Notes: generated by a model from the sequence alone, not told the origin. DNA of 64,000 nt from Terriglobia bacterium (GCA_965218585.1 CBDCLE010000004.1:128001-192000); one strand, 5' to 3'; positions 14,254 to 63,388 are shown, counted from the first letter of the stretch. Made by a program: numbers and translations.

Positions 14254-14631
14254 TCAGGCCGCCCGATACTGGCCCTGATAATCGCAGTCTCGTTTCCAGA
14301 CCGCCCATACTCTGCGGGCCAGCTTGTTGGCCAAGGCGACGGCCGCCTTGTTATGTCCTCGAAGTTCGTGAATTCGAACACCCCATTGCTGTAACTCCGA
14401 TGGAGCCTCTGCCTTGTGTGCCCTCCACAACACGGAACGGCCTCCGTGGATGAGCAGCGTTCTTAGATAGCGGTCACCCCGTTTACTGATCCGACCTAAC
14501 CGACGCTGATTGCCACTGGAACGCTCCCGGGGTGTGAGTCCCAGATAACTCGCAAACTGGCGCGATGATCGAAATCGTTGGATATCGCCGACAAAACCCA
14601 CCAGGGCTGTGGCGGTTAACAACCCGACTCC

Positions 14632-16234
14632 CCCTCTGTGCCAACACGGGTGAGACACCTGCCTGATCCATAATTAGTGAGCAGGGCGGGAAGGAAGATA
14701 ACCTGTGTTGGTGACGAAATCCGAACACGAGCAGGAAGAATCGCGCGGAACGGAAGGAGCCCGTAGGGCGACTGGAGTTGCGCGCGAAGCGGCCGCACCG
14801 GATGGGGATGGACCGGATCCGGAGGTTGTGGATAAGGCGACGCGGCGGCGGTTCACCGCGGCGTATAAGCGGCGGATCGTGCGGGAAGCCGACAAGTGCA
14901 CGAAGCCGGGCGAGGTGGGAGCGTTGCTGCGGCGGGAGGGCGTGTATTCGTCGAGCCTGAGTGCCTGGCGGCGGCAGCACGATGCTGGCGAGCTCAACGG
15001 AACGGGCGTGAAACGGGGGCGCAAGGCGCAGCCGAAGGATCCCCGAGATAAGCGCATTGCCCAACTGGAACTGGAGAGGCGGCGGCTGGCAAGGAAGCTG
15101 GAGCAAGCCGAGACGGTGATCGAAATCCAAAAAAAAGTCTCCACGCTACTGGGGATCCCCCTGAAGAACCCCGACGAGGAGGAGAACGGCTGATGGAAGT
15201 GGCGGAAAAGTTCGCTCCGCAGTTGGGGACGGCGCCGGCATGTCGGGCCTTCGGTGTTCCCCGTGCGTCGCTCTATCGCCGTCGGCAACAGGAGGACGCT
15301 CCCCGGGCTCCACGGCGCCGGCCACCGTCCCATCGCGCCTTGACCGAGGTCGAGCGCCTGGAGGTCCTCGATGTGTTGCATAGCGAACGCTTCCTGGACC
15401 AGGCGCCGGCGCAGGTCGCTGCGGCACTGCTGGACGAGGACCGCTACCTGTGTTCGGTGCGCACGATGTACCGAATCCTGGATGCGAATCAGGAAGTGCG
15501 CGAACGGCGGAACCAGCGGCGGCATCCCGTCTACGAGAAGCCGGAACTGTTGGCGACAGGGCCGAATCGGGTGTGGAGCTGGGACATCACGAAGCTGAAA
15601 GGACCCCGAAAGTGGACCTACTACTACCTGTACGTGATCCTGGACATCTTCAGCCGCCAGGTGGTGGGATGGATGGTGGCCGATTGCGAATCCTCGAGTC
15701 TGGCGAAAAAGCTGATTCGTGAAAGCAGTGACAAGCATGGGATCGAACCGGATCAACTCACTCTGCACGCGGATCGCGGATCGTCGATGAAATCCAAGGC
15801 GGTGGCTTTATTGCTCGCCGACCTGGGGGTGACCAAGACCCACTCCCGGCCGCATGTTTTCGATGACAACCCGTTTTCCGAGGCCCAGTTCAAAACGCTG
15901 AAGTACCGGCCGGGTTTCCCCGAACGTTTCGGCTGTATCCAGGATGCCAAGGCGTTCTGCCGCAACTTCTTCGGCTGGTACAACAACGTTCACTATCATT
16001 CGGGCCTGAACTGGCTGACGCCGGCGACGGTCCATTACGGCCGCGCCGACCATGTCGTCCAACGACGGCAGCATGCCCTGGATCGCGGACGTCGCGAGCA
16101 TCCCGAACGTTTCGTCAACGCACCACGAACAATCGCCGGACCGCCCGAGGAGGTCTGGATCAACCCTCCTGCAAAGGTGCAGGTGGGAGCTTAAACTCTC
16201 AACGCAGGTGTCTCACACTTGTTGACATTTACCG
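14632..16234 (+). mobile_element. IS3-family element nested in the IS110 recombinase gene; orfA 14705-15193, orfB 15193-16194
   Basis: 3-bp TSD TCC, and removing the element restores IPG|VGLL; IR core CAACA..GTGAGACACCTGC; A8G frameshift motif at ~15129; WSWDITKL, LHADRGSSM, DDNPFSEAQFKT. Confidence 0.93.
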
Positions 16235-17282
16235 TCCAGGAATCGAGCGGAGACGCTCCACCACCGGTGTTTGCTCGGCCAGAGCTTTCAGCTCACCGTC
16301 CACGGTGCGCAAGTGAGACTCCAGTTCGCCAATTTCGCCGCAGACCTGGTCCAACATCTCCCGAACCACACTGGGGATCTCGACCTCGGCATCCTCGATC
16401 AGTTCCATCACTCCCGGTACCAGATGTCGTGCGCCTACAGGAATCACAAAACCAAACTCACGTAACAGTCCCCGCACCATGTTGATCCGGGTGACTCGTG
16501 TCCGCATCCATGTCGAGCGGATTCGATGTAGCGCTGTCAGTTGCTGTTGGGCCAATGTCTTGATCGGGACCGGACGGATATCGCTGTTGCGGTAGGCCTC
16601 AAATAATCCCTTCACATCCGCACGGTCCGTCTTGTCGCGTGGCACGTACGGCCTCACCTACTGCGGCGAGATCAGAACGACCTCGTGCCCCAGCTCCCGT
16701 ATCTGCCGTCCCCAGTGATGTGCCGAACCGCAGGCTTCCATCACCACTGTCGCCGGTTCCCGATTCACGAAAAACCGAAGAAACTTCACACGACTTAAAC
16801 GATAGGTTTCCTCGACATGTCCAGGTCGATCCGATACCCCAATCTCGAAAACATTCTTTGCCAGATCCACTGCAATCGTCTTATCCTGCACTTGGACTCC
16901 TCCTTACACACTGTGTTTAGACCGCAACATTGCGAGTCTCTTTATGACTTTGGCACTTTTGATGCCGACTAAGTCAAAGGGGGAGTCCATCCCATCAATA
17001 GAAACATGGCGTTTATCGTTCATATTGGGCCGGGACGCACCCATTGCCGGGAAAGCTCATAATGCCGGTTCGCTCCCTGACGTTGAGCAATAAGAGAGCT
17101 TCATGGTAACTGTCCAAGCCGCGTGATGTCATTGATTTCCCCAAATCCTCAACACCCGGTGGGGGCATGGATAGCTATCAGTTGGACCGTCAGGTGAATG
17201 ACCGGACTCGGACGGTCTGTGTTCGAACGCATCGCCTGACGCTACAGATTGGGAAAAGGTCAATTTTATCTCCGTTCCGTCC

Positions 17283-33586: not shown

Positions 33587-33817
33587 TTACGGTGAAAACC
33601 GGAGGAGTTCGCTGACGACCAAACGGTCGCCGCGCTGGAGGACGTTTATCAGCGCGTCGAGGCGGCGGCGCTTTTCGGAAGCCTGTCCAGAGGCGGTCGC
33701 CTCGATGAAATCGTCGATGCGGAAGTCGTGTTTGTGTGCGTACTCGAGGATGGCGAGACGCTGGCTGCGCACGTCCTGCTGCGCGGTCGAGACCCTCAAA
33801 TAGGCAACGGTTTTCAC
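33587..33817 (-). pseudogene. Serine recombinase (resolvase), C-terminally truncated, with an upstream res-like region
   Basis: VAYLRVSTAQQD...GDRLVVSEL then abrupt stop; palindrome CATGGAA..TTCCATG at ~33868-33890. Confidence 0.85.
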
Positions 33818-37654: not shown

Positions 37655-38305
37655 TCAGTACAGTGCTCTAGCGATCCTGTAAGCCGTTGCCCTGCCAATC
37701 CCGAGCCGTTTGGCAGCCTCGCCGGGCGTCAATCCGGCTTCAATGAGTTTTTGGGCGGCCGAAACGGTGTCCGGGTGAAGCGGGGGGCGACCGGGTCTTT
37801 TACCGCGTCTTTTGGTGGCGGCAATGCCGTCGCGGGTGCGCTCGGAAATCAGACGGCGCTCGAAATGCGCAATGGCGCCGAAGACGTGGAAAACCAGTTC
37901 GCCCGCGGCCGATGTGGTGTCGATTCGTTCTTCGAGGCTGACCAGGTGAATGCGGGCATACAACGCGATGATCTTGTCGTCGAATCCCGGAAATCGCCGT
38001 TGATACTTCCGGATCAGGGCGGGATCGAATCGGCCGTGCCGGTCTCGAGGAATCGACAACATCAGCTCGCCGTCGTCGCTGAGCACCGTCTTCCGGCTTG
38101 AGCCGTTCCGATGGTTGCCAGCTTCTTGCTCGCTCTCCCCACCGAGATGCATATCCATCTCGGCGTTCAGCATCCGCTCGGCCAACGCCTTCTTCAGATC
38201 TCCGACAAGGCCGTCTGAGCGCAAGACCGTTGCAGGATCTTGCCCTTCCAAAAGTTCATCCAGCACCTCGGCGCTGAACCTGGTCTCTTGCTTCTCCTTC
38301 GCCAT
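37655..38305 (-). pseudogene. In-frame chimera: IS256 transposase N-terminus fused to a serine resolvase C-terminus
   Basis: NHRNGSSRK..IPRDRHGRFDP..DDKIIALYAR (IS256) joined at ~37952 to IHLVSLEERIDTTSAAGELVFHVFGAIAHFER..GRPP-HTH; IS256 IR GAGCCTGTCAGGAATTATG ends at 38367. Confidence 0.88.
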
Positions 38306-44133: not shown

Positions 44134-44451
44134 GTGGTTCTGCTCGATTCGTCGGCGCGGGTTCCGCCATCGGTCCCCAAAATCAGGCAGTATCTACGCT
44201 GGCTCCTCAATTCCAAGCACGTGGACTCCAGTGAAGCCGGCCTCGGCGACTCAATGCCGCATTTCAATTTTCGTTGACAGGCCGGCGAAGTCCAGCAAGA
44301 CTTGGATGGCAGATTAATCCCATGCCCGCTTCGCGACAACTCATCGTTTGCTTGTGCATCGTGCTCTTGGCGTGTTGTGGTTTTGTATCCATTGGGCCGC
44401 CAGAGATTGTTTGGGTCGTTCCTCTCTTTGCTACTTTCTCGTTTGTCCTAG

Positions 44452-45993
44452 GAGTCTGCGCGGCAGAGCGGAAAGAACCTGGATTTATTGGGATTTGATC
44501 GTGTTGTCGGAGGCGACCGGACCGATTCTGCCGTTATGATGAACTCAGACCGGTGCGGACTCCAGTAGTAAGCCGTGTGATAAGGGTGGCGGTCCCGGTT
44601 TTCCGGATTAGGCCCATTCGATCTTCCCGTTCATCCGTCGTAAGTTCACTGCTAGAGTCACCAGGTTCCACTCACAGGTCACCTTGTCCAAACCTCGCAG
44701 ACTGAACTGTCGGAATCCGAGCACCGATTTGATCCACCCGAAGGGCGGTTCACCAATGTGCTTTCTGGCCCGGTAGCGATCACGCCCAGACGGGGATTTC
44801 ATTTTTCTCGTCATCCGACCAAGCGCGGTATCTTGTGGCGGGAGGGGGGCATCGTCCAGGTCCTTCTCCCGCCCCATGGCGACATACCCATCAATTTGGC
44901 GTTGTTCTAACATCCCCAGATTCGACTCGGATCGATACCCCGCATCAGCGAGCACGCGGCCTGGAGACTCTCCCAGGTTGTTGTTCACCGCATCCAGAGT
45001 CGGCTCCAACTGCCCCACATCCGACGCATTGTCGCTCACCGTGGTCGCCACGATGATCCGGGCCTCGGAATCCACCATCGCCTGCGCGTTGTAACATTGC
45101 TGGAACCCTTCCGTGGAGGTCTTCATGATCCGGCTTTCTGGATCGGTGAAGTTCTCCTGGGCCTTGGGCTTGGGCTCGCCCATGGGGCGTTTGAATGGCT
45201 TGCCCTTCTTTCCGCTTCCCGGTTCGTCGTCTCCCGGTTTCCGTCCGGCTTCCTGGTCCGCAGCCATCTGACGTTCCTCGAGTCGCTTCATCGCCGCCTG
45301 GATCGTGGCCAGACGCTTCTTACGGGTCGCCAACCCGTCGGGTAGTTCGTCTCCGCGCCGGTCCTTGCCGTAACGCTGGTCTTCGTCCTCATCGGTCGCG
45401 GTCGCCCGGTTCAACAGATCCCGAATCTGCTCACCCAACTCGGTCTCCTGCTTCTTCATGCGTTGATAGCTCATCGCTTTGCGTTTGCTCGCATTCGCCC
45501 GCATCTTGGTTCCGTCCACCGCTACCGTCCCCATCTTCACCAAACCCGCTTCTCGCGCCATCATCACCACTTGCACAAACAGCTTCCCGAACTCCTCAAG
45601 ATGCAGTTTGCGAAAATCCGAGATCGTTCGGTGCGCGGGAAAGTTCTCGGCTCCCAACATCCGGAACGCCACATCTTCTCTCAACTTCGCTGCGATCTTC
45701 CTGGATGAAAACACTCCGGTCCCGTACCCATAGATCATCACCTTCACCATCATCCGCGGATCGAAGGCCTGATTGCCAGGCCCGTCAGTTCCATGCCTCT
45801 GTTCGAACCCGCTCAAATCCATCGCGTCCACAGCATCCGATATGAAGTACGACAGGTGATCTTCGGCCAGCCAATCGCTCAGCGACGGTGGCATCAGCAG
45901 GCTCTGTTCTGGAATATAGGCTCGGTAAGTTCGTGGCATGCCCTATCTTCCATCCATTCCCGCCCAATTTCGGTCCTTCTGCCGCGCAGACTC
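44452..45993 (-). mobile_element. IS1182-family element (transposase 44608-45939)
   Basis: 16-bp IR GAGTCTGCGCGGCAGA; CTAG on both flanks; AVDGTKMRANAS, LADAGY. Confidence 0.95.
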
Positions 45994-45997
45994 CTAG

Positions 45998-46781
45998 CAT
46001 CGCGGCGATCGCTTGTGCTGAACGTTGCAGATGTACTCCCCCACGCGAACTCGCGCCCAGGGTAACCCCGGGGTGGTTACGGGTCGCTACGAGGATTCTG
46101 GCGAGGTACTCCCTGACGGGTCGGGCGATTTCCACGTCTCTGACCTGTGCCTGCATTTCGCGTATAGTCTGACCATCCAGAACGGGTTCTACAAGTGGGT
46201 CACCACGCTGGTTGCGCTCCAGTATTTCTACCTGTTCAGCCTCGTTCGGGTTACCTATGGTCAGGGACATTGTGAAGCGGTCGAGTTGGGCGTGGGGTAG
46301 TGGGAAAGTTCCGTAGCTGTCGATATCGTTCTGAGTGGCGACCAGCCAGAACGGGCTGGGCAAAGAATAACTTTTGCCGTCGGCCGTAACCTGTCCTTCG
46401 GCCATCGCCTCCAGTAGTGCAGATTGAGTTCGCGTACTGGTCCGGTTGATTTCGTCTGCCAAGACTACGTTCGCAAAAATTGGTCCCTCTACGAACTCGA
46501 AACGATTGTCCGCCTGATTAAATACAGATGACCCGGTAATGTCAGTGGGAAGAAGGTCGGGGTTGAATTGGATGCGCTTGAAGCTTGATCCCAGGGATCG
46601 GGCAAGGGAACGGGCTAAAAGCGTCTTCCCGGAACCCGGAAGATCGTTGAGCAGAAGATGTCCTCCCGCAAGCAGACTCGCGACACTCAGACGGATAACC
46701 TCCGGCGGAGCGACAACCGCCTCGGAGACGTTCCGTACTAGGCTATCCGAGTTCTGGACAAATGAATTTGTGAGAATCCAC
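45998..46781 (-). pseudogene. MoxR-family AAA+ ATPase, 3'-truncated by IS1182, start out of frame
   Basis: GGHLLLNDLPGSGKT, RIQFNPDLLPTDITG, LADEINR, ATQN..GTFPLP.AQLDRF. Confidence 0.9.
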
Positions 46782-46793
46782 TTACTCCTATAG

Positions 46794-48261
46794 TACTACT
46801 ATGTTACAAACGAAGCGGTCCACAGAACGGACAACGAGGAAGCTGCTGAATCAGGAAGCGGGCGATGCGAATGCGAAGCGTGGCAATCGAGCAGGGGTTA
46901 TGTCGTTCGGGCCGGATCCGGGGTTCCGCGGGGTTTGAAGTGTTTGGGGAGTTTGGGGACGGATAGTCCAACATGCTCGACAAATGCAGAGGGGGAAAAA
47001 CGGCTCCGCTCGGCGACCAGGAACCCATAAGAGGCAATACATAAGGTGCCATGATGGTGAAATCCACGCCAGCCGCGACCTTCGTAGTGTCCCAGACCGA
47101 GTTCCTGCTTGAGTTCCTGATAGTCGCGTTCGATGATCCAGCGCTGTTTGGCCTGACCGGCCAGATCGGAAAGCGAGGTATGGGCCCCAAGAGTGGAGAG
47201 CCAGTACCGGATCGGTTCGGATGCGGTCTTGGGCCACTCGACCAACAACCACTCTTTCGGATGCGGCGAGTGGCGCTCGTGATCCAGATGAGCGGGACGA
47301 ATGCGAACTGCGGCGAAACGGGAACGCAGGGTCTCGGAGGTGCCTTCGCGCCAGGAGACGTTCTTCCAACGCTGGGGAGACAACGAGAGGGCCAGTTGCT
47401 TGACCGAAACCGGTTGATGTTTCTTGTTGCGCTGCATGCGGGTCGGTGTCCGTCCGCGGCCGGTCAAGGATTTCGGCGGCAAGGGACCCTGGCCCGGTTT
47501 CCACACGGTCGTGGTGCCTTGCACCCCTAGGACGTAGCTAAGTCCGAGTTCGGTGATGCCGTGCCGGAACTTGTAGTTGTTGCCGTAGGCCGTATCGCCC
47601 AGAACCGGTGCCGGAGCAATGCCGTCATCGACGGCCTGCCGGATTTGTTCCAAAGCAATTTGAGGTTTAGTTTGAAATCGAACGTCTTCGGGAATAGCGG
47701 CTTTGCTTCGACGTTCCGGATCCTTCGCCCAGGTCTCGGGGAGGTAGAGTCGCCATGCCACCGGCAAGCTGGATTTCGCTGTCGCCACCGACAGGCTCAC
47801 CGCCACCCGGCAGTTCTCAGGTTTGCCGACCTGTCCACAGTATTGCCGGGCCACACCCACCGAGTGGGTCCCCTTTTTCACGAATCCGGTGTCGTCGACA
47901 ATCCAGGCTTCAATCGGACCGTTGGCTTCCATCGCCCCCAGCGCGTACTGTCGAACTTCTGCCAACAGAGCCGCATCGTCCCAGGGCGCATCCGCGACCA
48001 GATGATGTAGCGACTGGTGCATTCGGCGTACATTATCCGGAGCCAATCGTGCAGCCATCGGCTCCACACTCTTACGTTTGATCGGCAGCAACAACCCGGT
48101 GCAGTACGACTTCAACGGTTCATGACGATCGGCGTGTCCTGCGGCCGACGCCAGGCGTTCCAAATAGGCCGCAAAACGTTTTTCCTGAGTGCCTGGCGCC
48201 TTCGATTTGGCGCTCATGACCGGATGCTAACATAAAATAGGCCGTTTGTAACATAGTAGTA
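46794..48261 (-). mobile_element. IS701-family element, full length (transposase 46898-48217)
   Basis: 19-bp IR TACTACTATGTTACAAACG; IVDDTGFVKKG.HSVGVARQYCG, GDTAYG, RWIIERDYQELKQELGL; flanks are not duplicated. Confidence 0.95.
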
Positions 48262-50477: not shown

Positions 50478-51470
50478 ACGATGCGGTAAACTCTCCTCGG
50501 CATGAAAGACAAGGACGCGCTCGATGCCCTGCGCCAGGGCGACTACGAAACGGCTTCCCACCTACTGGCAGATGTCGTCCGAGACAACGGATACAGTTCC
50601 GATGTCCTGAATCACGCCTACACGATTGCTCTCGATTCAGCGGACAAGAAGGACGACCTGGCCGAAGCCGCGTTCGAGATCGGGAAGCATTATCAGGACG
50701 CGAAACCGAGCCTCGCACTGGATTATTTTCAGAGGTCTATCTTCTCTGGGCTGGATCCGGACCGAGTTCGAGGGGTTTGCGAATACCAAGCCCGTTTAAC
50801 CGCGGGTCTTCGGAAGAACCCTCCAGCCGCAATCCGCACCGAACATGTTGCGCACGTGATCGGCTGCTTTCTCCCCGGTCACGCACCCAGCCTCTACATT
50901 CAATTGATGTCGAAGGCCTTGAAGCAGCAGGGTATACGGTCAACCGTATTCACGACCGAGTGGGCATCGGACTGGTTCTTCAACCCACCGGGTCAACAGT
51001 CGCAAGCATTCGAGGTTGATGGGGAAACCATTGTCGGCCCTCGAAGCGGTGGCTTTCTCGAACGTGCAGAGATAGTCGCGACGGCCATTCGGGACAAGGA
51101 CATCGATATCGCTTTCTACCATTGCGGACCGACCGAACAGATCACCGTTCGGGTCGCGGCGCTCGGATCCACACCTGTTCAGATCAACGTCAACCATGCC
51201 ACCGAAGTGGACGCCGACATCTTCGACGGATTCGCCCATCTGTTTCAGAACGGCCTTGAACGTAACCGCTTTCCGCACCGTCCCTCCCGGTGGATCCCCC
51301 TGATCTCTGATATCGAAGAACGGCTCACCTCGTGTGTGCCTCGACGACGGGAGGAACTCGATCTCGAACGAGCCGAAACTGTTTCGGGCACTTACGGCAA
51401 CCTTTTCAAGGTCAGTCCCGAGTACGTGCAGACGCTGGTCCGAATCATGGAAAGATTCCCCGGGCATTAC

Positions 51471-53027
51471 GCTATAAGGAAGGACGCCCCTTTGTCGGCT
51501 GTTGCCAGGAGGAAAATCTCCCGACAACAACCCATTCAACGTAGCTGCGTTGAATTCAAAGACAAAGGAGCACGTAAATGAAACAGGCCAAGTATATCGG
51601 CATGGATGTGCACCAGGCAACGACGGTGGTGATGGTCTTAAACGCAGACGGCAAACTGGTCTGGGAAAAGATCGTAGAGACCCAGGCCGGGCCAATCATT
51701 GATTTGCTGGAGAGTCTGAGTGGTGAGCTGCACGTGACGTTTGAAGAAACCACGCAGGCCGAATGGCTCTACAACGTGGTCCGGGGATATGTGAGCGAAG
51801 TGATCGTGTGTGATCCCAGACGGAACAAACTGCTCAGTGACGGGTCCAAGACCGACCGGGTGGATGCCCTGAAACTGGCCGAGCTGCTCCGGGCCGGATG
51901 GCTGCGGTCGGTCTACCACGGGCACGATGCGACGCGGACGTTGAAAGAACTGGTCCGCGGATATGAGACCTTGACCCTGGATACGCAGCGGACGATGGTT
52001 CGGATCAAGGCAATGTATCGAGGACGTGGGATCCGGACGCCGGGCCACGGCGTCTACCTCCCATCGCAGCGGGAACACTGGATCGAACAGCTCGCCAATA
52101 CCGGTGCACGGCGGCGTACCGGATGGTTGTATGAGGAGCTGGATCATCTGAGAGGGTTAAGAAAAAAAGCGAAGCTGGCGATGTTAACCGAGAGCCGCAA
52201 GCATCGTGCGGTGGGGATATTGCAGACGATTCCCCAGTTGGGACCGATACGTTGCGCCTTGATTGTAGCGACGGGGGACACCCCGCATCGATTTCGAACC
52301 AAACGCCAGCTCTGGAACTACAGCGGTCTGGCCGTGGCAATGCACATGAGTGCGGAGTATGAGCAGGAAGGGAGTCGTGTGGTACGTCGTCGAAAGCCGA
52401 TCGCCACGCGGGGACTGAACCGCAACGGCAACCGACGTTTGAAAGATGTGTTCATCGGGGCGGCGACCGGAGGCATGGGGGCCGAACCTTGGAAAAGCTA
52501 CCTGGAGGGGCTCCAGAAAGACGGCAAGCGTAAGGAGATGGCTCGGCTGACACTGGCGAGGAAGATTGCAGCGACCGCACTGAAGATGTGGAAGAAAGGA
52601 GACACGTTTAACGCAAAGAAACTGAACTTGGCGACATAGCCGTTTCCAGACTTCTGCCGACAGCGCGAGGCATTCGACCGCTCGTCGTCGGTGAGGCGTC
52701 GGAACGGTAGGGTCGAGGGTGAGGATCCGATACGCGGTTGGCACACAGCGCTTGCTGAAGGCCCATGTAATACTCTATCCCCCCTCGCACGACCTGGAAA
52801 AGCGATAGCCCTCGAGGCTCAGATAGAACCGTGGTCGGCAATCACGACCCCTTTGCGCTTTTCAGTTTCTCGAAACCACACCACGTTGTGATGAGTGATC
52901 GACTTCTCTGCGATGCCGGATCAACAGTTCGTCTCAACGGAGACAGGGGCTGGCTGCCACGACAGTGTTGGGTCCGGTGGTCCGCTCGGCGGGGACGTGT
53001 TTCTCTTGACAGCCCCTTCCATAGAAC
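51471..53027 (+). mobile_element. IS110-family (IS1111-like) element, intact; recombinase 51578-52639
   Basis: YIGMDVHQ, TFEE, KTDRVDA, WNYSGLAV..MSA, LARK; AC core at both junctions; no TSD. Confidence 0.92.
52660..52870 (+). ncRNA. Predicted seekRNA region (boundaries approximate)
   Basis: ATACGCGGT (52730) approximates the reverse complement of the right flank; ATAGAAC (52823) equals the element right end. Confidence 0.7.
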
Positions 53028-55284: not shown

Positions 55285-55362
55285 CTAGGAGGGATAGCAT
55301 ATAGGGCTGGAGTGGTCCCGAAGCGCGGTCTATGAGCTGTGCTGGGCCACAATCCACTCCGT

Positions 55363-55450
55363 GTCCTCGGAAACGACATTCTCGGGCGTTGAACAAGGGC
55401 CCGAAAACAGGGTTTTCAATGTCCGAGAAGGGGTATCAGGCACCGAGATC
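55363..55450. repeat. Two divergent degenerate copies of the lox/dif-like site
   Basis: Minus strand 55392-55363 TCAACGCCCGAGAA-TGTCGT-TTCCGAGGAC; plus strand 55416 TCAATGTCCGAGAA-GGGGTA-TCAGGCACCGAGATC. Confidence 0.65.
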
Positions 55451-55653
55451 GAATTTCAGCGGCGAGCAGCGTGAAACCGCATTTACGAAATCGGCATTTT
55501 TCTTTGTCGACGCACCCGGTCAGTATATGCTGCCTGAAAAATCATGATATTTGAAGTCCCCGTCATGGTGGTCTGTCATGGCTCGTGGACGAATCCGGTA
55601 GATCGGGAGTAGATTGTGACCTGCTGCTATTCTTCTCGGATTGTCGGAGGCAG

Positions 55654-56046
55654 ATGATAAAAACGAAACTTGCCGGAATCATACTGGTTGGGATACTTGC
55701 CGGTAGCCTCCCCGTCTATGGACACCACTCCTTCGCTGCCATATTTGATGCCAATGATCGGATCGATCTGACCGGGACCGTGACCAAGGTCGAGTGGATG
55801 AGCCCCCACACCTGGTTTTACATTGACGTCGAGAACGAGCGTGGCGAGGTCGAAAACTGGGGTTTCGAGATGAGTGGCCCCAACATGTTGCTACGTCGCG
55901 GTTGGACTCGCAACTCGCTTCAGGTGGGAGATGTGGTAACCGTCGTCGGCTCCCGCGCAAGGAATGGCAGCCTCAACGGGGCTGGCCAGACCGTCACGCT
56001 TTCGACAGGTCAAAGGCTATTTGCCGGTCAGAACCCGACCAACTAA
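55654..56046 (+). CDS. DUF6152-family secreted protein
   Basis: GHHSFAA.FD, W.SPHTW, L.RRGW....LQVGD.V.V.G..AR. Confidence 0.85.
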   Translation: MIKTKLAGIILVGILAGSLPVYGHHSFAAIFDANDRIDLTGTVTKVEWMSPHTWFYIDVENERGEVENWGFEMSGPNMLLRRGWTRNSLQVGDVVTVVGSRARNGSLNGAGQTVTLSTGQRLFAGQNPTN

Positions 56047-56251
56047 TGGATTCGGCGCCAGCCGTTTCCTAAGAACGCACTCCGCCCGTTTGGTGTTCGG
56101 ACGCACGGTTCCAGGTTCCTCTCAATATCGACCGTCATCATCCGGTCGCCTTCACGATTGAACGGTTCACCCCCGGTTGAGCGACGGGACAGGTTGCGTT
56201 CCGCCGACTCTGAAAAGGGGCTGAAAATCACCACCGTCCGGAAATACCCGG

Positions 56252-57013
56252 TTAATTCGGAATCAGTTCGAGGTACTTGTTGTTCGTGCATACCCAATCC
56301 AGCAGTTCCGTGTCCGGCAAGAACTCCCAGTCGAGGGAAACCGTCCACTCCTCGGCGTACGTCTTCGGATCATCGATCGTGATCTCGACCTCCATGTGTC
56401 CAAAGTCGACCCGGTGGAATCGTTCGATGAGGTGGAGGGCATCGCTGTGCGGATGGCCGTTGTCGTCGAGCCATGTCCCCTCGTGGACTCCGACGGTGTC
56501 CACGACCAGCGTATCGCCCTCCCACCTCCCGACGGAATACCCGAACCAGGCCGGCTCGCGCTCGTCCGGCAGGGGGCGGCCGTCGGTCAAGATCTGACGG
56601 TAGGAGTGGTAAGCCTCAAACAGCATCACGATCTGGTCGGGAGTCTGGATGACTTTCCTCGGGGTGGGGTGCGAATCGAAATCGGTCACGCTGTGCGGGA
56701 GGCATCCAGCGCTGGGGCGGTCCCGGCCCTCGTTTGAGAGACGCTCCCGGTACAACTCGTCGGCCCACGGTTCCATGCGTACTTCGGTGTCCGCCGCGAG
56801 GTTGAAGAGATACCTCGGAGAGGGCGTGATCCAGATTCCGGAGAGATCCGGTGTCCCATCCGCGGTCCGCGGCACGGGCGCCTCGAGATCGGGCGAGCCG
56901 TCGGGCAGGCGCGGGATTCCCGGTGACGGATAGTTGAGCCATTGCGCCTCGGCCGTCGAGAAACCCAGCAACAAGGCCACCATTCCCGCTGCAATAGCCA
57001 GCTTGGTCTTCAT
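56252..57013 (-). CDS. Conserved secreted beta-rich hypothetical protein (common DUF6152 neighbour)
   Basis: Signal peptide; PRTADG.PDLSGIW, GYSVGRWEGDTLVVDT, GHPHSD.LHL.ERF. Confidence 0.8.
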   Translation of the reverse strand: MKTKLAIAAGMVALLLGFSTAEAQWLNYPSPGIPRLPDGSPDLEAPVPRTADGTPDLSGIWITPSPRYLFNLAADTEVRMEPWADELYRERLSNEGRDRPSAGCLPHSVTDFDSHPTPRKVIQTPDQIVMLFEAYHSYRQILTDGRPLPDEREPAWFGYSVGRWEGDTLVVDTVGVHEGTWLDDNGHPHSDALHLIERFHRVDFGHMEVEITIDDPKTYAEEWTVSLDWEFLPDTELLDWVCTNNKYLELIPN

Positions 57014-57089
57014 GCGTCCCTCCTAGTCAATGATCCGATCCGTTCGCGCTCAAACGATGCGCACATGCCTGTGGAACGCCAGATTACTT

Positions 57090-58472
57090 TCATCTCTCTG
57101 GCGCGACGCGAAACTCCTCGTTGCGCGCAGGGACCACCGCGGTCTCGATGGGGCGCTCAAGCTGGGGCACCCAGTCGTATGGTACACGGTATGCCCGGTA
57201 GAAATTATTGATGTCGCCACGGTAGTAGGGATTGATGTACTCCCAGACGATCTCGTTGTCCATGGTTACCTCGAAGATCCGGCCTGTAGCTCCCTCGGCA
57301 ACCATCGTGTTGCCGTTAGGCAGTCGCTGGGCTGAGCTGACGTTCCGACTGAAGAACTTTACCCGTCCCTGGCCGGGAACCGAGTACTCCCAGACCTTTT
57401 CAAATGTCACTGGATCAATCTCGAGGACGCGAGACCAAAAGCGGCCTACCGAGGACCGACCCGTGGGCGCAGTCGGGGACGGTGCTCCGTAGCCGGCCGC
57501 CCCGCCGTTGTCAAAAACCAGCAAGTTGCCAGCGCCGGGCAACCCCTCCGGGATAAGGTGCGGGTGATGCTGGCCCACGATTTGGCCCAACTCTGCCAAG
57601 GCCGGTACGTCCCGGTAGTCGGGTCCCATTTTCCAAACAATCGTGCCTGTGCGATCGATGATGCCGATGATGTTGGCTTGACGGCTGCTAAAGATGACGT
57701 TCTCCGGGTGGAACCGTTCGTCTCCTTCGTCGTACCAACGGTTCGATCCGAGATATGTCGCACTGTTGATGTGCAGCCAGTCAGCGCTGCCCCGGTTTTC
57801 ATTCCAGCCGGGATAGCGATAGATCGTGTTGCGTGCATCGCCGCTGAAGCCGAACTCCTCGACATGGTCGCTGGCCAGCCACTCCCACACGACGTCCCCC
57901 TCCCAAGTAACCTCCAGGATGTAATCGTCTTCGAGTAGCTTGTCGGAAATCTCAGGCTTCAGGACGTTACGGTGCGCAAGAATCAGCGTTCGTCCCCCAT
58001 CCACCATCGGCTCGGCGTTTGGTGCATAATAACCCACGGGGCTGCCCTCACGTTGCCAGTCGTGGTGCTGCCGGGCCATCCACCCGGGGTCTTCGCCTTC
58101 TTCTTCCACTTGCTCGGTCCGATCGAACTTCCAGACGACCTCGCCATCCCAGTTCAATTGCAGCAGCTCCAGCCCCTCCTGGTGACCCTGCCGCGACCTG
58201 CTGCCACCAACGACGTAACCGCCCGGCAAAATACGAAACGGACTCGGCGAAGCCCCCACTTCTGTCCAGTGCCTCAGCAGGTTGCCGTTCATGTCAATGA
58301 GAGCAGCCCCCGCCGTAGTGTTATCCCCCTCTCGAATATCGAAGACGGTATAGCCACTCCAGGTCTTATCTGGATCAAACACAGTTGTCCCAGTCGGGAA
58401 GATCGATTGATAGGTGAATAGTAATGACGGCGTCAGAACAAGTATCGCGGTCCCGAGAACGAATCGTCTCAT
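57090..58472 (-). CDS. Aryl-sulfate sulfotransferase (ASST) family beta-propeller protein
   Basis: ARQHHDWQREG, DWLHINS, SSRQAN, GQHH, LVFDNG, SSAQRLPNGNT. Confidence 0.85.
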   Translation of the reverse strand: MRRFVLGTAILVLTPSLLFTYQSIFPTGTTVFDPDKTWSGYTVFDIREGDNTTAGAALIDMNGNLLRHWTEVGASPSPFRILPGGYVVGGSRSRQGHQEGLELLQLNWDGEVVWKFDRTEQVEEEGEDPGWMARQHHDWQREGSPVGYYAPNAEPMVDGGRTLILAHRNVLKPEISDKLLEDDYILEVTWEGDVVWEWLASDHVEEFGFSGDARNTIYRYPGWNENRGSADWLHINSATYLGSNRWYDEGDERFHPENVIFSSRQANIIGIIDRTGTIVWKMGPDYRDVPALAELGQIVGQHHPHLIPEGLPGAGNLLVFDNGGAAGYGAPSPTAPTGRSSVGRFWSRVLEIDPVTFEKVWEYSVPGQGRVKFFSRNVSSAQRLPNGNTMVAEGATGRIFEVTMDNEIVWEYINPYYRGDINNFYRAYRVPYDWVPQLERPIETAVVPARNEEFRVAPER

Positions 58473-58619
58473 GTCTTGTTTCCTCTCCTGCAACTCGGCA
58501 CACCGGGGTTGCTCACGACCCAACTGAGTGGCGGAGCCCCTGCTTGTCGCTCGTATTAACGAAATCTGAGAAAGCTGAAGGCAGTCTATAGAAGCAGTCA
58601 GTAGCGAAGCAACGAAATC

Positions 58620-58653
58620 TCAACGTCCGAGAAGATGATTTCTCAGGACTTGA
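58620..58653 (+). repeat. 34-bp lox/dif-like quasi-palindromic site
   Basis: TCAACGTCCGAGAA-GATGAT-TTCTCAGGACTTGA; first 30 nt identical to the copy at 60805. Confidence 0.8.
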
Positions 58654-58757
58654 CCTCGCAAATCTAGGGAACCGGCACTCGTTCCTTAAGTTCCCCAGAA
58701 CCAGTTCAGGAGTGATATGGAGAGGTTCCTTCCTGCAACGAGCGAGTCCTCCGTCGA

Positions 58758-60422
58758 TCAGTCCTGATCGCCGGAGGCGTCGTAGACGATCCTTCCTCCT
58801 ACGATCGTCATCAGAGGTTGGATGTCCTTGATCTCGCCGGCTGGAATCGTCAGGTAATCGCGGTCCAGAACTAGCAGATCCGCCAACTTGCCCGGTTGAA
58901 TTGAACCCAGATTGTTTTCCTGAAACACGAGGTAGGCATTTTCGCGCGTGTGGGCGATCAAGGCTTCCTCGCGGCCGATCGCCTGCCTGAGGACCTCGGT
59001 GCCGCCTACCATCTTCCCGGTCACGGCCCACCAGAGGGTCGTGAATGGCCGGTACTGATTCACCTCGAACGTGTCGCTTCCCAGGCCCCACACGATGCCG
59101 CTGTCCTCGATGAGCGCCAGCGGCGGCATATCGTAGGAACGGTCGCCGTGCGCGCGGTTGAAGATCTGGCCCATGACGGTGGGCCGCGTATGTACCGCGA
59201 GGTACATCCCGAGATCCTTCATGCGCTCGATGTGTGAGGCGTTCACCTGGTCGACATGAGCCAATGCCCAGCGCAGATTCCGGATGGGGTACTCCTCGTT
59301 AATCAGCTCGATCTGGTCGAGGAACCCAGTAATCGTGTTCTCGATTGTGGCGTGCACATGCAGCGGTAATCCAGCACGGGCAACCTCAGTCGCGACGCGT
59401 CGCCACTGGAAAAGCTGCTCTGGTGTTGGACTGGTTGTGCGTGCCAGCATGCTGTCGTGCAGCGGGCGGTATACGCTTTCTCCGTAGGCGGTCAGATCTA
59501 CCCAGTTGTCGCCCTGAAACGGTTTCAACTCGGCGATCTGCGGCAGAAGGCGATCCACTTGGGCTGGGGTGCCGGATGCTCCCGCCGGCAGAAAACAGAA
59601 GAAGCGCATATTGAGCCGACCCTCAGCTGCAAATTGCCGGAACCTGTCCACGAGGTTCGCCGGGCAGGGACCGCCGGCCGTGGTAAGACCCGCTCGGTTC
59701 ATATCGCGGATCATTGCCAGACTGCTGGATTCGAACAATTCTTCTGGCGGTGCGGGACGCGCTCGCCCAACTTGGTTGATGCCTTCAGCTTCGATCACGC
59801 CTGTCGGTCTTCCGCCATCATCGCGCACGATCCACGGAGCGTTCATCTCATTCAAGCCGATGGCCTCGATAGCGCGGCTGTTGAGATAGGTGTGGGAGCG
59901 TGTGTACTGCAACAGTACCGGGTTGTTGGGAGCAACCCGGTCCAACTCGTCGCGTGTGAAATGACTCACGTCGTCTGTGAATTGATCCGTCGCCCAACCG
60001 CCCAGCGTGAAAACCCATTCGCCCGGACCCAGATCGATTGCCCGCTGGCGTATCATCTCGAGCGCCTCGGTCCGCAATTCCACCCCATCCAGACGCAGTT
60101 CCAACTGCCAGATTGGACCTTCTTCCATGATGTGAGCATGGTTATCGATCAGGCCGGGAATAACAGTACGTCCTCCGAGGTCGATCGTTCTGGTATTGGG
60201 CCCGGCCAGTCGCGCAACTTCCTCGGTCGTGCCGACTCCCACGATACGTTCGCCCAGGACAGCCACCGCTTCTGCGATCGTGAAGCGGTCATCTACAGTA
60301 ACGATCTTTCCGTTGGACAGAACCAGATCCGGAGCCTGATCCTGTGCATGAGCCATCGATGCAGCAACGGAACTTGCTAACAGCACAAGAGCCACTGTCG
60401 TTTTCCAGTTCAAATGTTTCAC
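58758..60422 (-). CDS. Amidohydrolase 3 (YtcJ-like), secreted
   Basis: DLGGRTVIPGLIDNHAH, HVHA, LAH, GSD, GSIQPGKLADLLVLD. Confidence 0.9.
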   Translation of the reverse strand: MKHLNWKTTVALVLLASSVAASMAHAQDQAPDLVLSNGKIVTVDDRFTIAEAVAVLGERIVGVGTTEEVARLAGPNTRTIDLGGRTVIPGLIDNHAHIMEEGPIWQLELRLDGVELRTEALEMIRQRAIDLGPGEWVFTLGGWATDQFTDDVSHFTRDELDRVAPNNPVLLQYTRSHTYLNSRAIEAIGLNEMNAPWIVRDDGGRPTGVIEAEGINQVGRARPAPPEELFESSSLAMIRDMNRAGLTTAGGPCPANLVDRFRQFAAEGRLNMRFFCFLPAGASGTPAQVDRLLPQIAELKPFQGDNWVDLTAYGESVYRPLHDSMLARTTSPTPEQLFQWRRVATEVARAGLPLHVHATIENTITGFLDQIELINEEYPIRNLRWALAHVDQVNASHIERMKDLGMYLAVHTRPTVMGQIFNRAHGDRSYDMPPLALIEDSGIVWGLGSDTFEVNQYRPFTTLWWAVTGKMVGGTEVLRQAIGREEALIAHTRENAYLVFQENNLGSIQPGKLADLLVLDRDYLTIPAGEIKDIQPLMTIVGGRIVYDASGDQD

Positions 60423-60434
60423 AGCACCTCTCCC

Positions 60435-60773
60435 TTAAAAAATTCTCCTGTTGCTCGATTCCCGCACCAAGACACGATGCCACACTCCTCTGGGTACTAC
60501 GACTGCTTGTCCGGGAGCGACCTCAATGATGTTCTCGTCGCCGTCTTCTTCCAAGATGACATCCACACGCCCTGAGATTAGGAAAAGAATTTCGTCGGCG
60601 TCTGGGTGCATCTCTCCGCCGTGTCGCTGAGGCGGATTCAACATTACCAATGGGGCCCCAATGACGAAGCCATCTACTCGTGGCGGAGGGCTTGATTCCC
60701 ACGGTACGAGACTCGCGCTGCCGTTGCGCTTCAGTCCGATAAGGGACCGCGATAGATCCAATGTCCTAGCCAT
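60435..60773 (-). CDS. Cupin-domain protein (C-terminus possibly clipped)
   Basis: GEMHPDADEILFLISG and PGQAVVVPRGVWH cupin motifs. Confidence 0.85.
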   Translation of the reverse strand: MARTLDLSRSLIGLKRNGSASLVPWESSPPPRVDGFVIGAPLVMLNPPQRHGGEMHPDADEILFLISGRVDVILEEDGDENIIEVAPGQAVVVPRGVWHRVLVRESSNRRIF

Positions 60774-60804
60774 GAGAACTCGATAACAGCCTGACGCCTC
60801 AAGG

Positions 60805-60838
60805 TCAACGTCCGAGAAGATGATTTCTCAGGACCTGA
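60805..60838 (+). repeat. 34-bp lox/dif-like site
   Basis: TCAACGTCCGAGAA-GATGAT-TTCTCAGGACCTGA. Confidence 0.8.
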
Positions 60839-60851
60839 GAATCACGTTCTC

Positions 60852-61199
60852 CTAACCGAAGAAACACGCGTACTCATCAGTGCCAACGATTTGTAGAACT
60901 TCCTCTAGGTTGTCAGCTTCCGGGACGGGATCATAGCGGTGCCACCGGAGATCGGCTCTCTGCCAATAGATCTTCCACACGCCCTTGGCCTTGACATAGG
61001 TCGCCTTTGCGACCCCCGCCTCGATTTTGCTTCCGGGCTCATTCGGCGACGGATGGATCTCGAATATTTCGACGCTCTGTCCGCTCACCCTACTACTGAG
61101 ATCGATCTTATTGCGATGTTGAGCCTGTGGCCGGAGGCGTTCGACAAACCGACGCGCCACCATCTCATACTTCTTCGATTCAAATTCACTGAAGGCCAT
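60852..61199 (-). CDS. DUF3024-domain protein
   Basis: MAFSEFE..QSVEIFEI.P..VAKATYVK....WKIYWQRADLRWHRYDP..DEYACFFG. Confidence 0.85.
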   Translation of the reverse strand: MAFSEFESKKYEMVARRFVERLRPQAQHRNKIDLSSRVSGQSVEIFEIHPSPNEPGSKIEAGVAKATYVKAKGVWKIYWQRADLRWHRYDPVPEADNLEEVLQIVGTDEYACFFG

Positions 61200-61268
61200 A
61201 CTTTAGATTACAGATTAACGTGAAGTTTACTTCTCTTGTGTCGCTATGGAACACGGTGCATCCGCATG

Positions 61269-61302
61269 TCAACGTCCGAGAAGGTGATTTAATAGGCGTT
61301 GA
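61269..61302 (+). repeat. 34-bp lox/dif-like site
   Basis: TCAACGTCCGAGAA-GGTGAT-TTAATAGGCGTTGA followed by GAATCATTTTCA. Confidence 0.8.
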
Positions 61303-61465
61303 GAATCATTTTCAAGGTCGTCCGCTGGTCCGGAACACTATACCTCGCTAGCGGGGAAAACTGCCGAGGCTGGTAAGCCTCGGCAGTGACATCCGGCCTT
61401 CGCCGGGGTGACTACGCTATAATCCGGCCTGACCATTTTTTCACATCACACAGAGGGACTGTGCC

Positions 61466-61651
61466 ATGAAGCGCCTCGTCGCTGTACTCGGATCCCTTCG
61501 TGGAAGAGCGCAAGATTCTGTTGCGTACCACAACACGCAGAACGACGCCAACAACATCCGCAGCGTGTGGCGCGACTTCAACGGCGATTTCGGCGAGGAC
61601 CTGCTGGCCTCCCAATACCGGGCGCACCCGCATCTCGCGCCGGAGGAATAG
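61466..61651 (+). pseudogene. DUF3500-like gene collapsed by a large internal deletion
   Basis: Signal-peptide-like start joined to NTQNDANNIRSVWRDFNGDFGEDLL, which resembles the DUF3500 C-terminal motif. Confidence 0.65.
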
Positions 61652-61666
61652 AGGAGGAATACAGCT

Positions 61667-62938
61667 ATGTCGATTCGATTCCCAGCACTCGTGATCACGC
61701 TACTCGCGCTCGTGCCCTCGACCTTGTGGTCGCAGGCGGCAGACGGCCCCGAGGCGCGCTGGACGATCCTGCACGCCGGCACGGTGCTCCCCGTTCCTGG
61801 AGAGCCACCGCTGACCCGGCAGTCGGTCGTCATCCGTGGCGATCGGGTCGACCGGCTCCTCCCCGGCTATGCGACCGCCGAGTCCCTCGGCCTCGATCCG
61901 GCCGGGGTCGACGTGATCGACCTGACGGAGTATTTCGTCCTGCCGGGCCTCATGGACATGCACGTGCACCTCACCGGCGGAGCGCCCAGCGGGGTTCCGT
62001 CCGAGGCCGCCGACCTGTACCGCCTCACGGGGGGCATCGTCAACGCCCGCCTGACGCTGCGGGCCGGCTACACGACAGTGCGCGACCTCGGCTCGACGGG
62101 ATGGTCGATCTTCGCGCTGCGCGACGGCGTCGAGGCCGGCGATCTCGAGGGCCCGAGGATGTTCGTCGCGGGGCACACGATCCGCAGCTCCGCCAGCGAC
62201 GGCTCGGGATCCTGCTACAGCGTGGAGAGCTGCCGTGAGGCGGTGCGGCGCCAGATTCAGATGGGCGCCGATCTGATCAAGGTCTACGTAACCTGCAGCG
62301 GTACCCAGCCCTGCGCCCACCCGGACGCGCCGGCCCTCTTCCTCAAGGACGAGCTGGTCGCCGCCGTGGAGACGGCCCGGACGCGCGAGCTGAAGGTGGC
62401 GGCACACGCCCATACGACCGCCGGCATCAACCTGGCGCTGGAGGCCGGGGTCGACTCGATCGAGCACGGCTCCTGGCTCGACGAGCGCTCCTACGAGCTC
62501 CTGGGTCAGACCGGCGCCTACCTGGTGCCGACGCTAGCGGTAAAGGAATTCATGCGGCAGAGGCTCGACCAACGATCGCCGGAAGAGCGCGCACGGCTCG
62601 AGGCCTCCATGGTTGAGCACCCGCGGCGGGTCTTCGAAGCCTTCCAGGCCGGCGGCAAGATCGCGTCGGGCAGCGACGCCGGGGGCTCGCGGAATGGCGA
62701 GAATGCGCGCGAGCTCGAAACCTACGTCGACATCGGCCTGACCGAGATGGAAGCGATCGTCACCGCGACGGTCAACGCGGCGGCGCTGTTGGGCGAAGCC
62801 GACCTGGGCACGCTCGAGGCCGGCAAGTTTGCGGACGTCATCGCCGTATCGGAGAACCCGCTCGAGAACATCTCGGCGTTGACCGACGTCGACTTCGTCA
62901 TGAAGGGCGGCACCGTCTACGCGACCCTTCGCGACTGA
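61667..62938 (+). CDS. Secreted metal-dependent amidohydrolase (Xaa-Pro dipeptidase-like)
   Basis: PGLMDMHVH, GYTTVRDLG, GADLIK, VAAHAH, SIEHG, GSDAG, GKFADVIAV; visibly higher GC than its neighbours. Confidence 0.92.
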   Translation: MSIRFPALVITLLALVPSTLWSQAADGPEARWTILHAGTVLPVPGEPPLTRQSVVIRGDRVDRLLPGYATAESLGLDPAGVDVIDLTEYFVLPGLMDMHVHLTGGAPSGVPSEAADLYRLTGGIVNARLTLRAGYTTVRDLGSTGWSIFALRDGVEAGDLEGPRMFVAGHTIRSSASDGSGSCYSVESCREAVRRQIQMGADLIKVYVTCSGTQPCAHPDAPALFLKDELVAAVETARTRELKVAAHAHTTAGINLALEAGVDSIEHGSWLDERSYELLGQTGAYLVPTLAVKEFMRQRLDQRSPEERARLEASMVEHPRRVFEAFQAGGKIASGSDAGGSRNGENARELETYVDIGLTEMEAIVTATVNAAALLGEADLGTLEAGKFADVIAVSENPLENISALTDVDFVMKGGTVYATLRD

Positions 62939-63104
62939 AGGTCAGGCATCGCGTCGGCGAGCAGCTGCGCGTACCCGAAGTACCAGACGAGCACGCCGGC
63001 CGATCATACGCTCGGGGCCGTGTCTCTGATGTTGCTAAACCTGAAAAAGCTGGAGAACTATAGAACGAGCGGGTTGGAAGCGATGATTTGAATCAGCAGG
63101 GTTC

Positions 63105-63138
63105 TCAAGGTCCGAGAAGATGCTTTAACAGGCGTTGA
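63105..63138 (+). repeat. 34-bp lox/dif-like site
   Basis: TCAAGGTCCGAGAA-GATGCT-TTAACAGGCGTTGA followed by GAATCATTTTCA. Confidence 0.8.
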
Positions 63139-63388
63139 GAATCATTTTCACGGTTATTTAAGGTGCTGGTACGCACTCGCCCAGCTCTTGGAACCAGTTC
63201 ACTGACCTGAAGGCGTATCCTATTCACCTCCGCTAGCCTAGCACCGATCCCGCTTCGCGGACGGAGCCCAAATTTCTGCGCGGCTCGGCCATAACAGTTG
63301 TTGTGGAATCCTTCGCTTGAGGGTTCGGGGCTTCGTGGGTCCGCTATGTGGAGCTAGCGTCCTGTAGTTAAAACTCAGTTCGGAGCTC

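Follow-up and report, generated by a model that had tools for sequence, protein, structure and literature searches.

Towards one end of a 64,000-nucleotide stretch of a Terriglobia bacterium genome (GCA_965218585.1 CBDCLE010000004.1:128001-192000), a short near-palindromic motif recurs between genes of unrelated function, which raises the question of whether its copies are sites at which genes are exchanged or repeats that happen to lie between them. The whole stretch is referred to here as the window; it corresponds to G000:C4:128001-192000, where G000 is the source genome, and it was compared with four congeners (G001 to G004). The original prediction, made from the sequence of the window, was of a gene-cassette array delimited by 34-bp lox/dif-like recombination sites. 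Here, the motif is identified as a site family that is genuine and lineage-restricted. Its members are interpreted, tentatively and at somewhat less than an even chance, as trans-acting Xer-type recombination and boundary sites, and this is the reading ranked first.

All six predicted copies are present. The 22-mer TCAACGTCCGAGAANNNNNNTT, with at most 3 mismatches, matches the window at 55371-55392 on the minus strand and at 55416, 58620, 60805, 61269 and 63105 on the plus strand, compared with a mean of 0.74 and a maximum of 4 matches in 100 dinucleotide shuffles (0/100 reaching 6). An nhmmer profile built from 57 copies gave 108 matches in the source genome (4.55 Mb, 26 contigs), distributed over 21 contigs and intergenic by crude open reading frame (ORF) calls in 98 cases (~90%), and a further 253 matches in 773 kb of site-rich DNA from G001 and G003. 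Allowing at most one mismatch, the 22-mer occurs 43 times in G000, 111 times in G001, 68 times in G003, four times in G002 and once in G004; the reversed control pattern does not occur in the same genomes. In a class-wide sample the motif was found in 10 of 401 genomes, all from one family (genus g1, 5/5 counting G000; g4, 4/5; g10, 1/2), with 1-3 site copies per genome in a second genus. There were no matches in IMG/VR or in the PLSDB plasmids. Among the matches listed in a wider contig scan there were 8 stretches, 4 of them chance matches in unrelated taxa and 4 in metagenome-assembled genomes of Terriglobia; among those listed, three of the latter have one match and one has three.

The conserved unit consists of cAATTC followed by the 34-bp core, in which two arms flank a 6-bp spacer. 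Subtype T1 has the spacer GATGAT, and subtype T2 has the spacer (G/T)(A/G)TCGT with the right arm TTGCGAGGACTTGA. The 236 good copies comprise 92 that are core-only, 68 of class A, 47 of class B and 10 of class B2, which differ in what follows the right arm, and 19 of subtype T2. Across 200 non-redundant T1 copies from three genomes, invariance is 97% or more at positions 1-4, 7-10 and 13-22, which include the asymmetric 6-bp centre with the AA/TT on either side of it. The positions that vary (5, 11, 12, 23, 24, 26 and 29-31) are roughly dyad-symmetric (5/30, 11/24, 12/23). The arm pattern first seen in the window, with a near-invariant left arm, a variable right arm and an asymmetric spacer, also holds across these copies. 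Conservation of the 6-bp centre and its flanks appears typical of a recombinase core and was counted in favour of recombination sites. Over the 24 conserved positions, identity is the same within species as between them (0.942), compared with 76-82% for syntenic core DNA between species, and the core is therefore either constrained or continually renewed. This lack of species-specific drift was likewise counted in favour.

Other roles for such a palindrome were considered. Positions 12 and 23 do not covary in the 200 T1 copies: G at position 12 is accompanied by C at position 23 in 62/120, and C at position 12 by G at position 23 in 12/77. As single strands the window copies fold weakly (-3.5 to -7.7 kcal/mol, z-scores -0.55 to -2.05), Rfam gave no match at E values up to 1, and a simple scan made no terminator or sigma-70 promoter call on any site. 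A hairpin or RNA role was rejected on these grounds, and we therefore read the site as double-stranded DNA recognised by a sequence-specific protein. An intrinsic terminator was rejected because none of the four terminator-like calls between 55000 and 64000 falls on a site and no T run follows the dyad. Miniature inverted-repeat transposable elements, defined as units of ~80-500 bp that have terminal inverted repeats and show target-site duplications, do not fit either, since conserved sequence begins 5-6 nt ahead of the core, goes no further than the core in 92/236 copies, and otherwise extends only as the coding remnants described below.

Within the genomes the sites are far from evenly spread. 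Half of the 88 sites in G000 considered for this purpose lie in 9 of 240 20-kb bins, and 8 bins hold at least 4 sites, compared with 0.135 expected. Genome-wide scatter, which the original prediction set against its own reading, was thus found in part: sites occur genome-wide, on 21/26 contigs, but are strongly clustered. Among neighbouring sites, i.e. those at most 8 kb apart in three genomes (n=205), 164 pairs are direct repeats and 41 are in opposite orientation, so that the direct-repeat arrangement seen in the window is general. The opposite pairs consist of 24 (+,-) pairs, 18 of which include a T2, and 17 (-,+) pairs, mostly 23-25 nt apart, which represent a T1/T2 head-to-head composite. 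Orientation relative to genes was scored at those T1 sites that have a called gene no more than 600 nt away on each side, using crude calls (long ORFs, filtered by G+C content at third codon positions, GC3). In three genomes the right arm faces a stop codon in 103/147 cases and the left arm faces a start codon in 99/147, tandem contexts being split 70 versus 15 (22 versus 6 for core-only copies); in G000 alone the values are 45/57, 40/57 and 29 versus 1. The site therefore has a fixed polarity to genes, with the variable (right) arm facing the stop codon and the invariant (left) arm facing the start. The right side of T2 faces a start codon in 16/23 intergenic copies. The cargo is diverse, with 534 singletons among 635 crude ORF clusters, and what recurs is a kinase and transposases (Pfam on representatives, 10 of the 16 largest clusters); the suggestion that the system accumulates secreted catabolic genes is not supported.

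The recurrent kinase is closely associated with the site. Translated in the direction of the gene, classes A and B give ...VLNWFEELKERVPVP*, whose stop codon lies 9 nt away from the right arm, and 125 of the 236 good sites (classes A, B and B2) carry beside the right arm such a remnant of the last codons of a kinase gene. The full-length family protein has Pkinase and PD40 domains. Most copies are short remnants, but a few are full genes (403 to 905 aa), and across G000 the PD40 Ser/Thr-kinase paralogue family is almost entirely fragmented. Upstream, T2 lies ~100 nt before the kinase-family ATG, with a conserved leader, in most copies. In G000 an open frame of less than 100 aa follows 17/23 copies of the kinase 5' motif, and one of less than 100 codons precedes 31/38 copies of the 3' motif. 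In the second genus, a kinase remnant, a kinase start or an IS91-type ORF (insertion sequence, IS) adjoins the site at 4 of the 5 loci examined. A fixed, cis-required end within the kinase remnants was rejected, as they reach 27-100 nt with no sharp edge and nucleotide alignments cannot separate erosion from paralogue divergence. Furthermore, G001 holds a 94%-identical amidohydrolase gene, there without a cupin gene, inside a kinase shell between two sites, in the order T1, linker, T2, kinase leader, ~15 kinase codons, amidohydrolase ribosome-binding site and gene, kinase 3' remnant, T1.

Comparison between species shows that the DNA flanking the sites has been reshuffled. Blocks from the window map to scattered places in the four congeners and are 87-97% identical between species. 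The clearest example is the DUF3024 gene, which is 92-95% identical in G001 and G003 and bounded by sites in all three genomes with different neighbours in each, confirming that sites bound blocks that lie elsewhere in congeners; its neighbour in G001 is a block found between two sites on contig C2 of G000. The right-arm variant GGACCTGA accompanies DUF3024 in both G001 and G003, whereas the left arm differs (sites s110, s130 and s284). Flanks were regarded as shared at 85% identity or more over at least 220 nt. The 12 site pairs sharing both flanks are assembly duplicates or self-overlaps, except for one cross-genome case, and after filtering there remained 23 pairs sharing the left flank only and 22 sharing the right only (30 when the gap limit is relaxed and IS insertions are counted). 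In the right arm, positions 29-31 go with the right flank, as 0/7 pairs differ compared with 40% of random pairs, albeit with small numbers. A metagenome scan with DUF3024 gave 45 loci, among which one close relative (L091, 1043 nt) is the only one with a site. Its DUF3024 relative is 91% identical over the first 88 residues and has the leader and start of the kinase family directly after it; before it comes part of a module located on contig C1 in G000, and the junction lies inside the left arm of the site (...GGACG/TTGA), of which only GGACGTTGA is kept. From ~5.5 kb onwards the window is mostly without long-range synteny to G001 and G003 and is rich in IS copies. Three isolated sites (on C19, C25 and C10) have flanks that are IS elements or non-syntenic, and one of the three lies ~115-125 nt from a core syntenic block's edge.

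The sites are also targets of mobile elements. An IS30-family element (NCBIfam, 290.6 bits) is inserted precisely midway along the spacer, with its ATG target duplicated, and at least 7 of the site matches in G000 carry its end. Two IS110-family elements begin directly after GATGAT or GATGATTT (G001, G003), and an IS91-type element with an integrase ends 22-26 nt from TTGAGA in 5/6 copies in G001. One report describes IS insertion next to plasmid dif (pdif) and dif sites (PMC10132070), and another describes the targeting of repetitive extragenic palindromes (REPs) by IS110-type and other IS (PMC1525189); because IS homing is known for both kinds of site, it does not discriminate between a recombination site and a REP. 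In the window, relatives of the two IS110-family elements are present at 51461-53027 and 13948-17000, the latter split at 14632-16235 by an IS with an rve-type transposase (ORF 15193-16194). Two further multi-copy IS lie in the window: a 1.55-kb element at 44448-46000, to which many copies in G001 and G003 are 86-87% identical, and an IS256/Mutator-family element of 1.47 kb at 46791-48261, with more than 25 copies in G000. An 820-nt element lies beside a site elsewhere in the genome (L138:2931-3763, i.e. G000:C25:186931-187763), with 29 G003 copies at 97-98% identity among the matches listed.

The original prediction excluded both integron attC sites and the chromosomal dif, and both exclusions hold. 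A candidate chromosomal dif, TGTCGCATAA-TGAGTA-TTATGTCAAGT, lies outside the window at G000:C10:37495-37521; with up to 3 mismatches it is found in 10/35 genomes of the family, which represent 4 genera. Its arms are conserved while its spacer varies, and it is single-copy except for two copies in G003. Since this separate canonical candidate exists, the sites are not the chromosomal dif; moreover, genomes of the second genus in which the site is low-copy keep the kinase or IS91 context. Integron integrases were assessed with TIGR02249 (cut-off 265). Neither G000 nor G004 has an IntI above the cut-off, the best match in G000 being XerD at 83.7 bits, whereas IntI genes scoring 440-458 bits are present at G001:C9:714608-715549, G003:C2:3040327-3041268 and G002:C41:5422451-5423395. 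G003 also has a broken IntI copy at C2:200258-202639. No site lies within ~15 kb of any of the three intI genes, and in G001 and G002 attC-like hairpins of 94-102 nt are found a few kb from intI. An attC identity was rejected because it is sequence rather than structure that is conserved, the hairpins are weak and the unit is 34-40 bp as against the 94-102-nt hairpins at the intI loci. At least two same-strand sites each following an ORF, the hallmark of attC arrays and of attC clusters that have no integron-integrase (CALINs), are nevertheless found here (164/205; 103/147). A link to REP-associated tyrosine transposases (RAYTs) was not found either: G000 has two Y1_Tnp (PF01797) genes, neither with flanking copies or inverted repeats of at least 11 nt, and the nearest site is ~2 kb away. 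Finally, the only recombinase sequences in the window are resolvase (PF00239) fragments at 33593-33808 and 37799-37954, which are probably remnants of serine-recombinase genes.

In the reading ranked first, T1 and T2 delimit gene-sized modules in hyper-plastic islands and would be the core sites at which a tyrosine recombinase of Xer type, conservative in its action and provided in trans, would bind, cut and exchange strands. Candidate enzymes are the host XerC/XerD or the Xer-like integrase carried by IS91-type elements of sister genomes. Recombination between direct repeats would excise a module as a circle with one site, and re-insertion at any other site would generate arrays whose units all run 'start - gene - stop - site' in one direction. 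The PD40 Ser/Thr-kinase gene, which has T2 ~100 nt upstream of the ATG and T1 9 nt past the stop codon, would be both the first such module and the most frequent one. The proposal of a cassette system is supported in part, by the direct arrays, the polarity and the relocated blocks, as a site serviced in trans would predict. Also counted in favour of this reading were the clustering, the behaviour of positions 29-31, the IS insertions at the centre or edge of the site, the presence of XerC and XerD, and the by-eye match of the arms to the dif candidate. The proposal falters on the recombinase, on the crossover and on the controls. It was correctly predicted that the window holds no tyrosine recombinase gene (PF00589 has 0 matches on its contig, and the 12 in the genome are all on other contigs), and no dedicated recombinase was found in or next to the arrays of G000 either.

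Several further observations weigh against this reading. The only tyrosine recombinases of Xer size in G000 are XerD (C10:73395-74285; 378 bits, NCBIfam cut-off 329.6) and XerC (C3:185265-186182; 343.5 bits, cut-off 335.15). The chromosomal dif is a different sequence from the site, and most genomes with a dif have one copy of it. A pair comprising a ~300-aa Xer-like integrase and an IS91-family transposase adjoins sites in G001 and G003, but this integrase is not present in G000, although a relic of the element's end is; G002 has 22 copies of a related integrase and only 8 sites, so that its copy number does not track site number. Among the flank-sharing pairs no single fixed crossover point in the spacer was found. 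Positions 11-12 and 23-24 show no link to either flank (n=14 and n=7), the left arms of s066 and s090 already differ despite left flanks that are 99% identical, the right-arm positions 23-24 of s010 and s076 differ despite right flanks that are 99.6% identical, and in several pairs homology starts only 20-50 nt into the extension. Adjacency is kept at 1/54 sites versus 6/54 informative non-site intergenic points in the same islands, a difference too weak to call the sites special breakpoints. The junction of the G001 amidohydrolase lies inside the kinase gene, leaving ~15 N-terminal codons and a C-terminal remnant, and not at a site, and the kinase remnants end anywhere over ~27 to 100 nt without a sharp edge, as random erosion would leave them. 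Neither circles nor empty sites were seen in Logan contigs, where the joints between site copies had short sides (23-38 nt); these joints look like repeat cross-mapping and give no verdict on circles or deletions. Recombination at the site is accordingly unproven, because the analysis found no cognate enzyme, breakpoints are not tightly placed, the controls are nearly as scrambled and some junctions fall inside kinase remnants.

The looseness of the breakpoints is what would be expected if the sites were passive repeats like REPs and the bacterial interspersed mosaic elements (BIMEs) they compose, i.e. lineage-specific near-palindromes that would spread and be homogenised by some other route and at which block borders arise by homologous or illegitimate recombination and IS landing with no dedicated site-specific recombination. 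Such a reading, which we consider rather unlikely, accounts for breakpoints spread across the repeat and for the shuffling of variable positions irrespective of the flanks, an outcome expected of short-patch gene conversion. It also suits the form of the sites, which like REPs are high-copy (~100), short (34-40 bp), imperfect in dyad and extragenic (98/108), prefer gene 3' ends, belong to one family amplified in three species, combine two subtypes head-to-head across a conserved 23-25-nt linker as BIMEs do, and are targeted by IS110-type and other IS in the manner reported for REPs (PMC1525189). However, a REP stem is kept by compensatory change, and the counts at positions 12 and 23 show none; the would-be loop is the most conserved part and the hairpins are weak, neither Y1_Tnp gene offers a RAYT link, and strong clustering in long direct-repeat runs replaces dispersal and alternating orientation. 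The tie to the kinase suggests another explanation without a recombinase, in which the sites are conserved flanks of an amplified and decayed kinase family, T2 acting as a 5' control and T1 as a 3' boundary (an operator, insulator or terminator-like element). Tandem duplication would have made the arrays, pseudogenisation, foreign genes and IS would have turned them into a mosaic, and the sites would move no genes. This would explain co-orientation, the kinase last-codon remnants at 125/236 sites, the start-facing T2 upstream of the kinase leader and ATG, the short frames adjoining kinase motifs in G000, the foreign gene within the kinase shell of G001 and the context of the second-genus loci. 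We nonetheless judge it unlikely, because 92/236 copies have no kinase remnant and unrelated genes end 13-30 nt from the arm, because the core stays 0.94 identical while adjacent remnants decay, even beside dead genes, and because the simple scan gave no terminator or sigma-70 promoter call and Rfam no family.

The two remaining explanations would each bring in a different enzyme. Each arm may be the terminal inverted repeat of a non-autonomous unit moved by a DDE transposase, e.g. that of the IS30 family, which is abundant here, so that the palindrome would be an end-to-end junction. The invariant arm indeed occupies both outer ends of kinase units (T2 ... T1 inverted; 18/24 (+,-) pairs with a T2), the conserved unit reaches 5-6 nt beyond the left arm (cAATTC), the class B dyad is longer, and the IS30-family element lies exactly at the junction centre. 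This is improbable, however, as solo half-sites are rare, modules lack flanking target duplications, most arrays are direct repeats of whole palindromes and the ends of the IS30-family element itself have a different sequence. Miniature attC sites in CALIN-type clusters, serviced by the IntI of sister genomes, are more improbable still. In their favour are the co-oriented gene-plus-site arrays, AAC...GTT at the outer dyad ends of class B, IntI above the curated cut-off in G001, G002 and G003, the joining of the DUF3024 block to another inside ...GGACG/TTGA in L091, and the reported occurrence of integrons in Acidobacteriota (PMC8618304). Against them stand the lack of an IntI above the cut-off in G000 and G004, the distance of more than ~15 kb between sites and the three intI genes, of which those in G001 and G002 have 94-102-nt hairpins nearby, and a unit of 34-40 bp with bulges on opposite arms and no structural covariation.

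The array in the window can be followed site by site. It opens with the head-to-head composite (55359-55449), in which a degenerate T2 site with spacer TGTCGT (55359-55392, minus strand; 1 mismatch to the 22-mer) and a degenerate T1 site with a decayed right arm (55416-55449, plus strand; 2 mismatches, 13.3 bits with nhmmer) face each other with their left arms across a 23-nt linker; the same composite recurs elsewhere at a spacing of 23-25 nt. The module contents described from the sequence were confirmed by Pfam. Module 1 (55585-58523) contains DUF6152 (55585-56046, plus strand), a 253-aa ORF (56252-57013, minus strand) that matched no Pfam family, and an arylsulfotransferase (57090-58523, minus strand). 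These three genes map to separate places in congeners, except that in G003 DUF6152 and the 253-aa gene are together, with the sulfotransferase ~100 kb away. A full T1 site, TCAACGTCCGAGAA-GATGAT-TTCTCAGGACTTGA, follows at 58620-58653 (plus strand; 0 mismatches, 53.9 bits), with a class A extension at 58654-58712 (minus strand), a remnant of the last codons of the PD40 Ser/Thr-kinase that is stop-broken in this copy. Module 2 (58758-60773, minus strand) consists of Amidohydro_3 (58758-60422) and a cupin (60435-60773), and is followed by a full T1 site with the right-arm variant ...GGACCTGA (60805-60838, plus strand), found as a match to the 22-mer pattern. Module 3 is DUF3024 alone (60852-61199, minus strand), its stop codon 13 nt from that site, and it is followed by a T1 site with spacer GGTGAT (61269-61302, plus strand) and a class B extension to ~61322. 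Module 4, on the strand opposite to the rest of the array, is a GC-rich Amidohydro_1 gene (61667-62938, plus strand) with a GC3 of 0.89 compared with ~0.6-0.8 in its neighbours and no nucleotide match in the four congeners; it looks like a recent foreign acquisition. The last window site is a T1 (TCAAGG..., spacer GATGCT; 63105-63138, plus strand; 1 mismatch) with a class B extension, and the array runs on past the window on the same contig to C4:202366 (8 nhmmer rows counting the site at 63105).

If the sites are true recombination sites, they would form a cassette system of a kind other than integrons in a large phylum most of whose members are uncultured, offer a tangible way into how accessory genes are acquired and rearranged in such genomes, and constitute a natural 34-bp target for at least three IS families. 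It is possible, albeit doubtful, that they represent a third kind of chromosomal cassette system beside integrons and plasmid dif modules: a 34-bp asymmetric core, serviced in trans by an Xer-type or unrecognised recombinase, that would assemble single-gene modules and exchange them among related Terriglobia, seeded by a kinase and parasitised by at least three IS families. Even as passive repeats the sites flag hyper-variable islands, explain local breaks in assembly and synteny, and would document REP-like biology, including IS homing, in Acidobacteriota.

Among known systems, the dif modules of Acinetobacter are one of the closest likenesses. The pdif sites alternate in orientation around each module. 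In both systems modules are bounded by short sites whose two inverted arms enclose a 6-bp spacer, conservation is stronger in one of the arms and the modules contain no recombinase; XerC and XerD are present in G000. PMC10132070 describes pdif/dif as two 11-bp XerC and XerD arms in inverse orientation with a 6-bp spacer, and reports dedicated IS beside the sites. The sites described here differ in that the conserved part is 14 bp per arm as against 11 bp, the arms match the G000 dif candidate by eye at 13/22 positions, with the same 6-bp spacing, and they are chromosomal, number ~100 per genome and are mostly direct repeats. Integron arrays and CALINs resemble the system in having co-oriented, mostly single-gene units each with a palindromic site, diverse cargo, content that varies between relatives and a role as IS targets. 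CALIN-type clusters can also lie far from any integrase (PMC4889954, PMC8618304). An attC site, however, acts as a folded single strand bearing R and L boxes and extrahelical bases along with a terminal loop that varies, its structure being more conserved than its sequence (PMC4889954). The site of 34-40 bp is instead conserved in sequence, G000 is without IntI, and the intI loci of congeners lie elsewhere with hairpins of their own. Set apart from proteobacterial REPs and BIMEs by the lack of a RAYT and of stem covariation, and by clustering in islands with long direct-repeat runs, the sites share with them the form of short, imperfect, extragenic palindromes near gene 3' ends that are lineage-specific, occur as paired inverted subtypes and serve as targets of IS110-type elements (PMC1525189).

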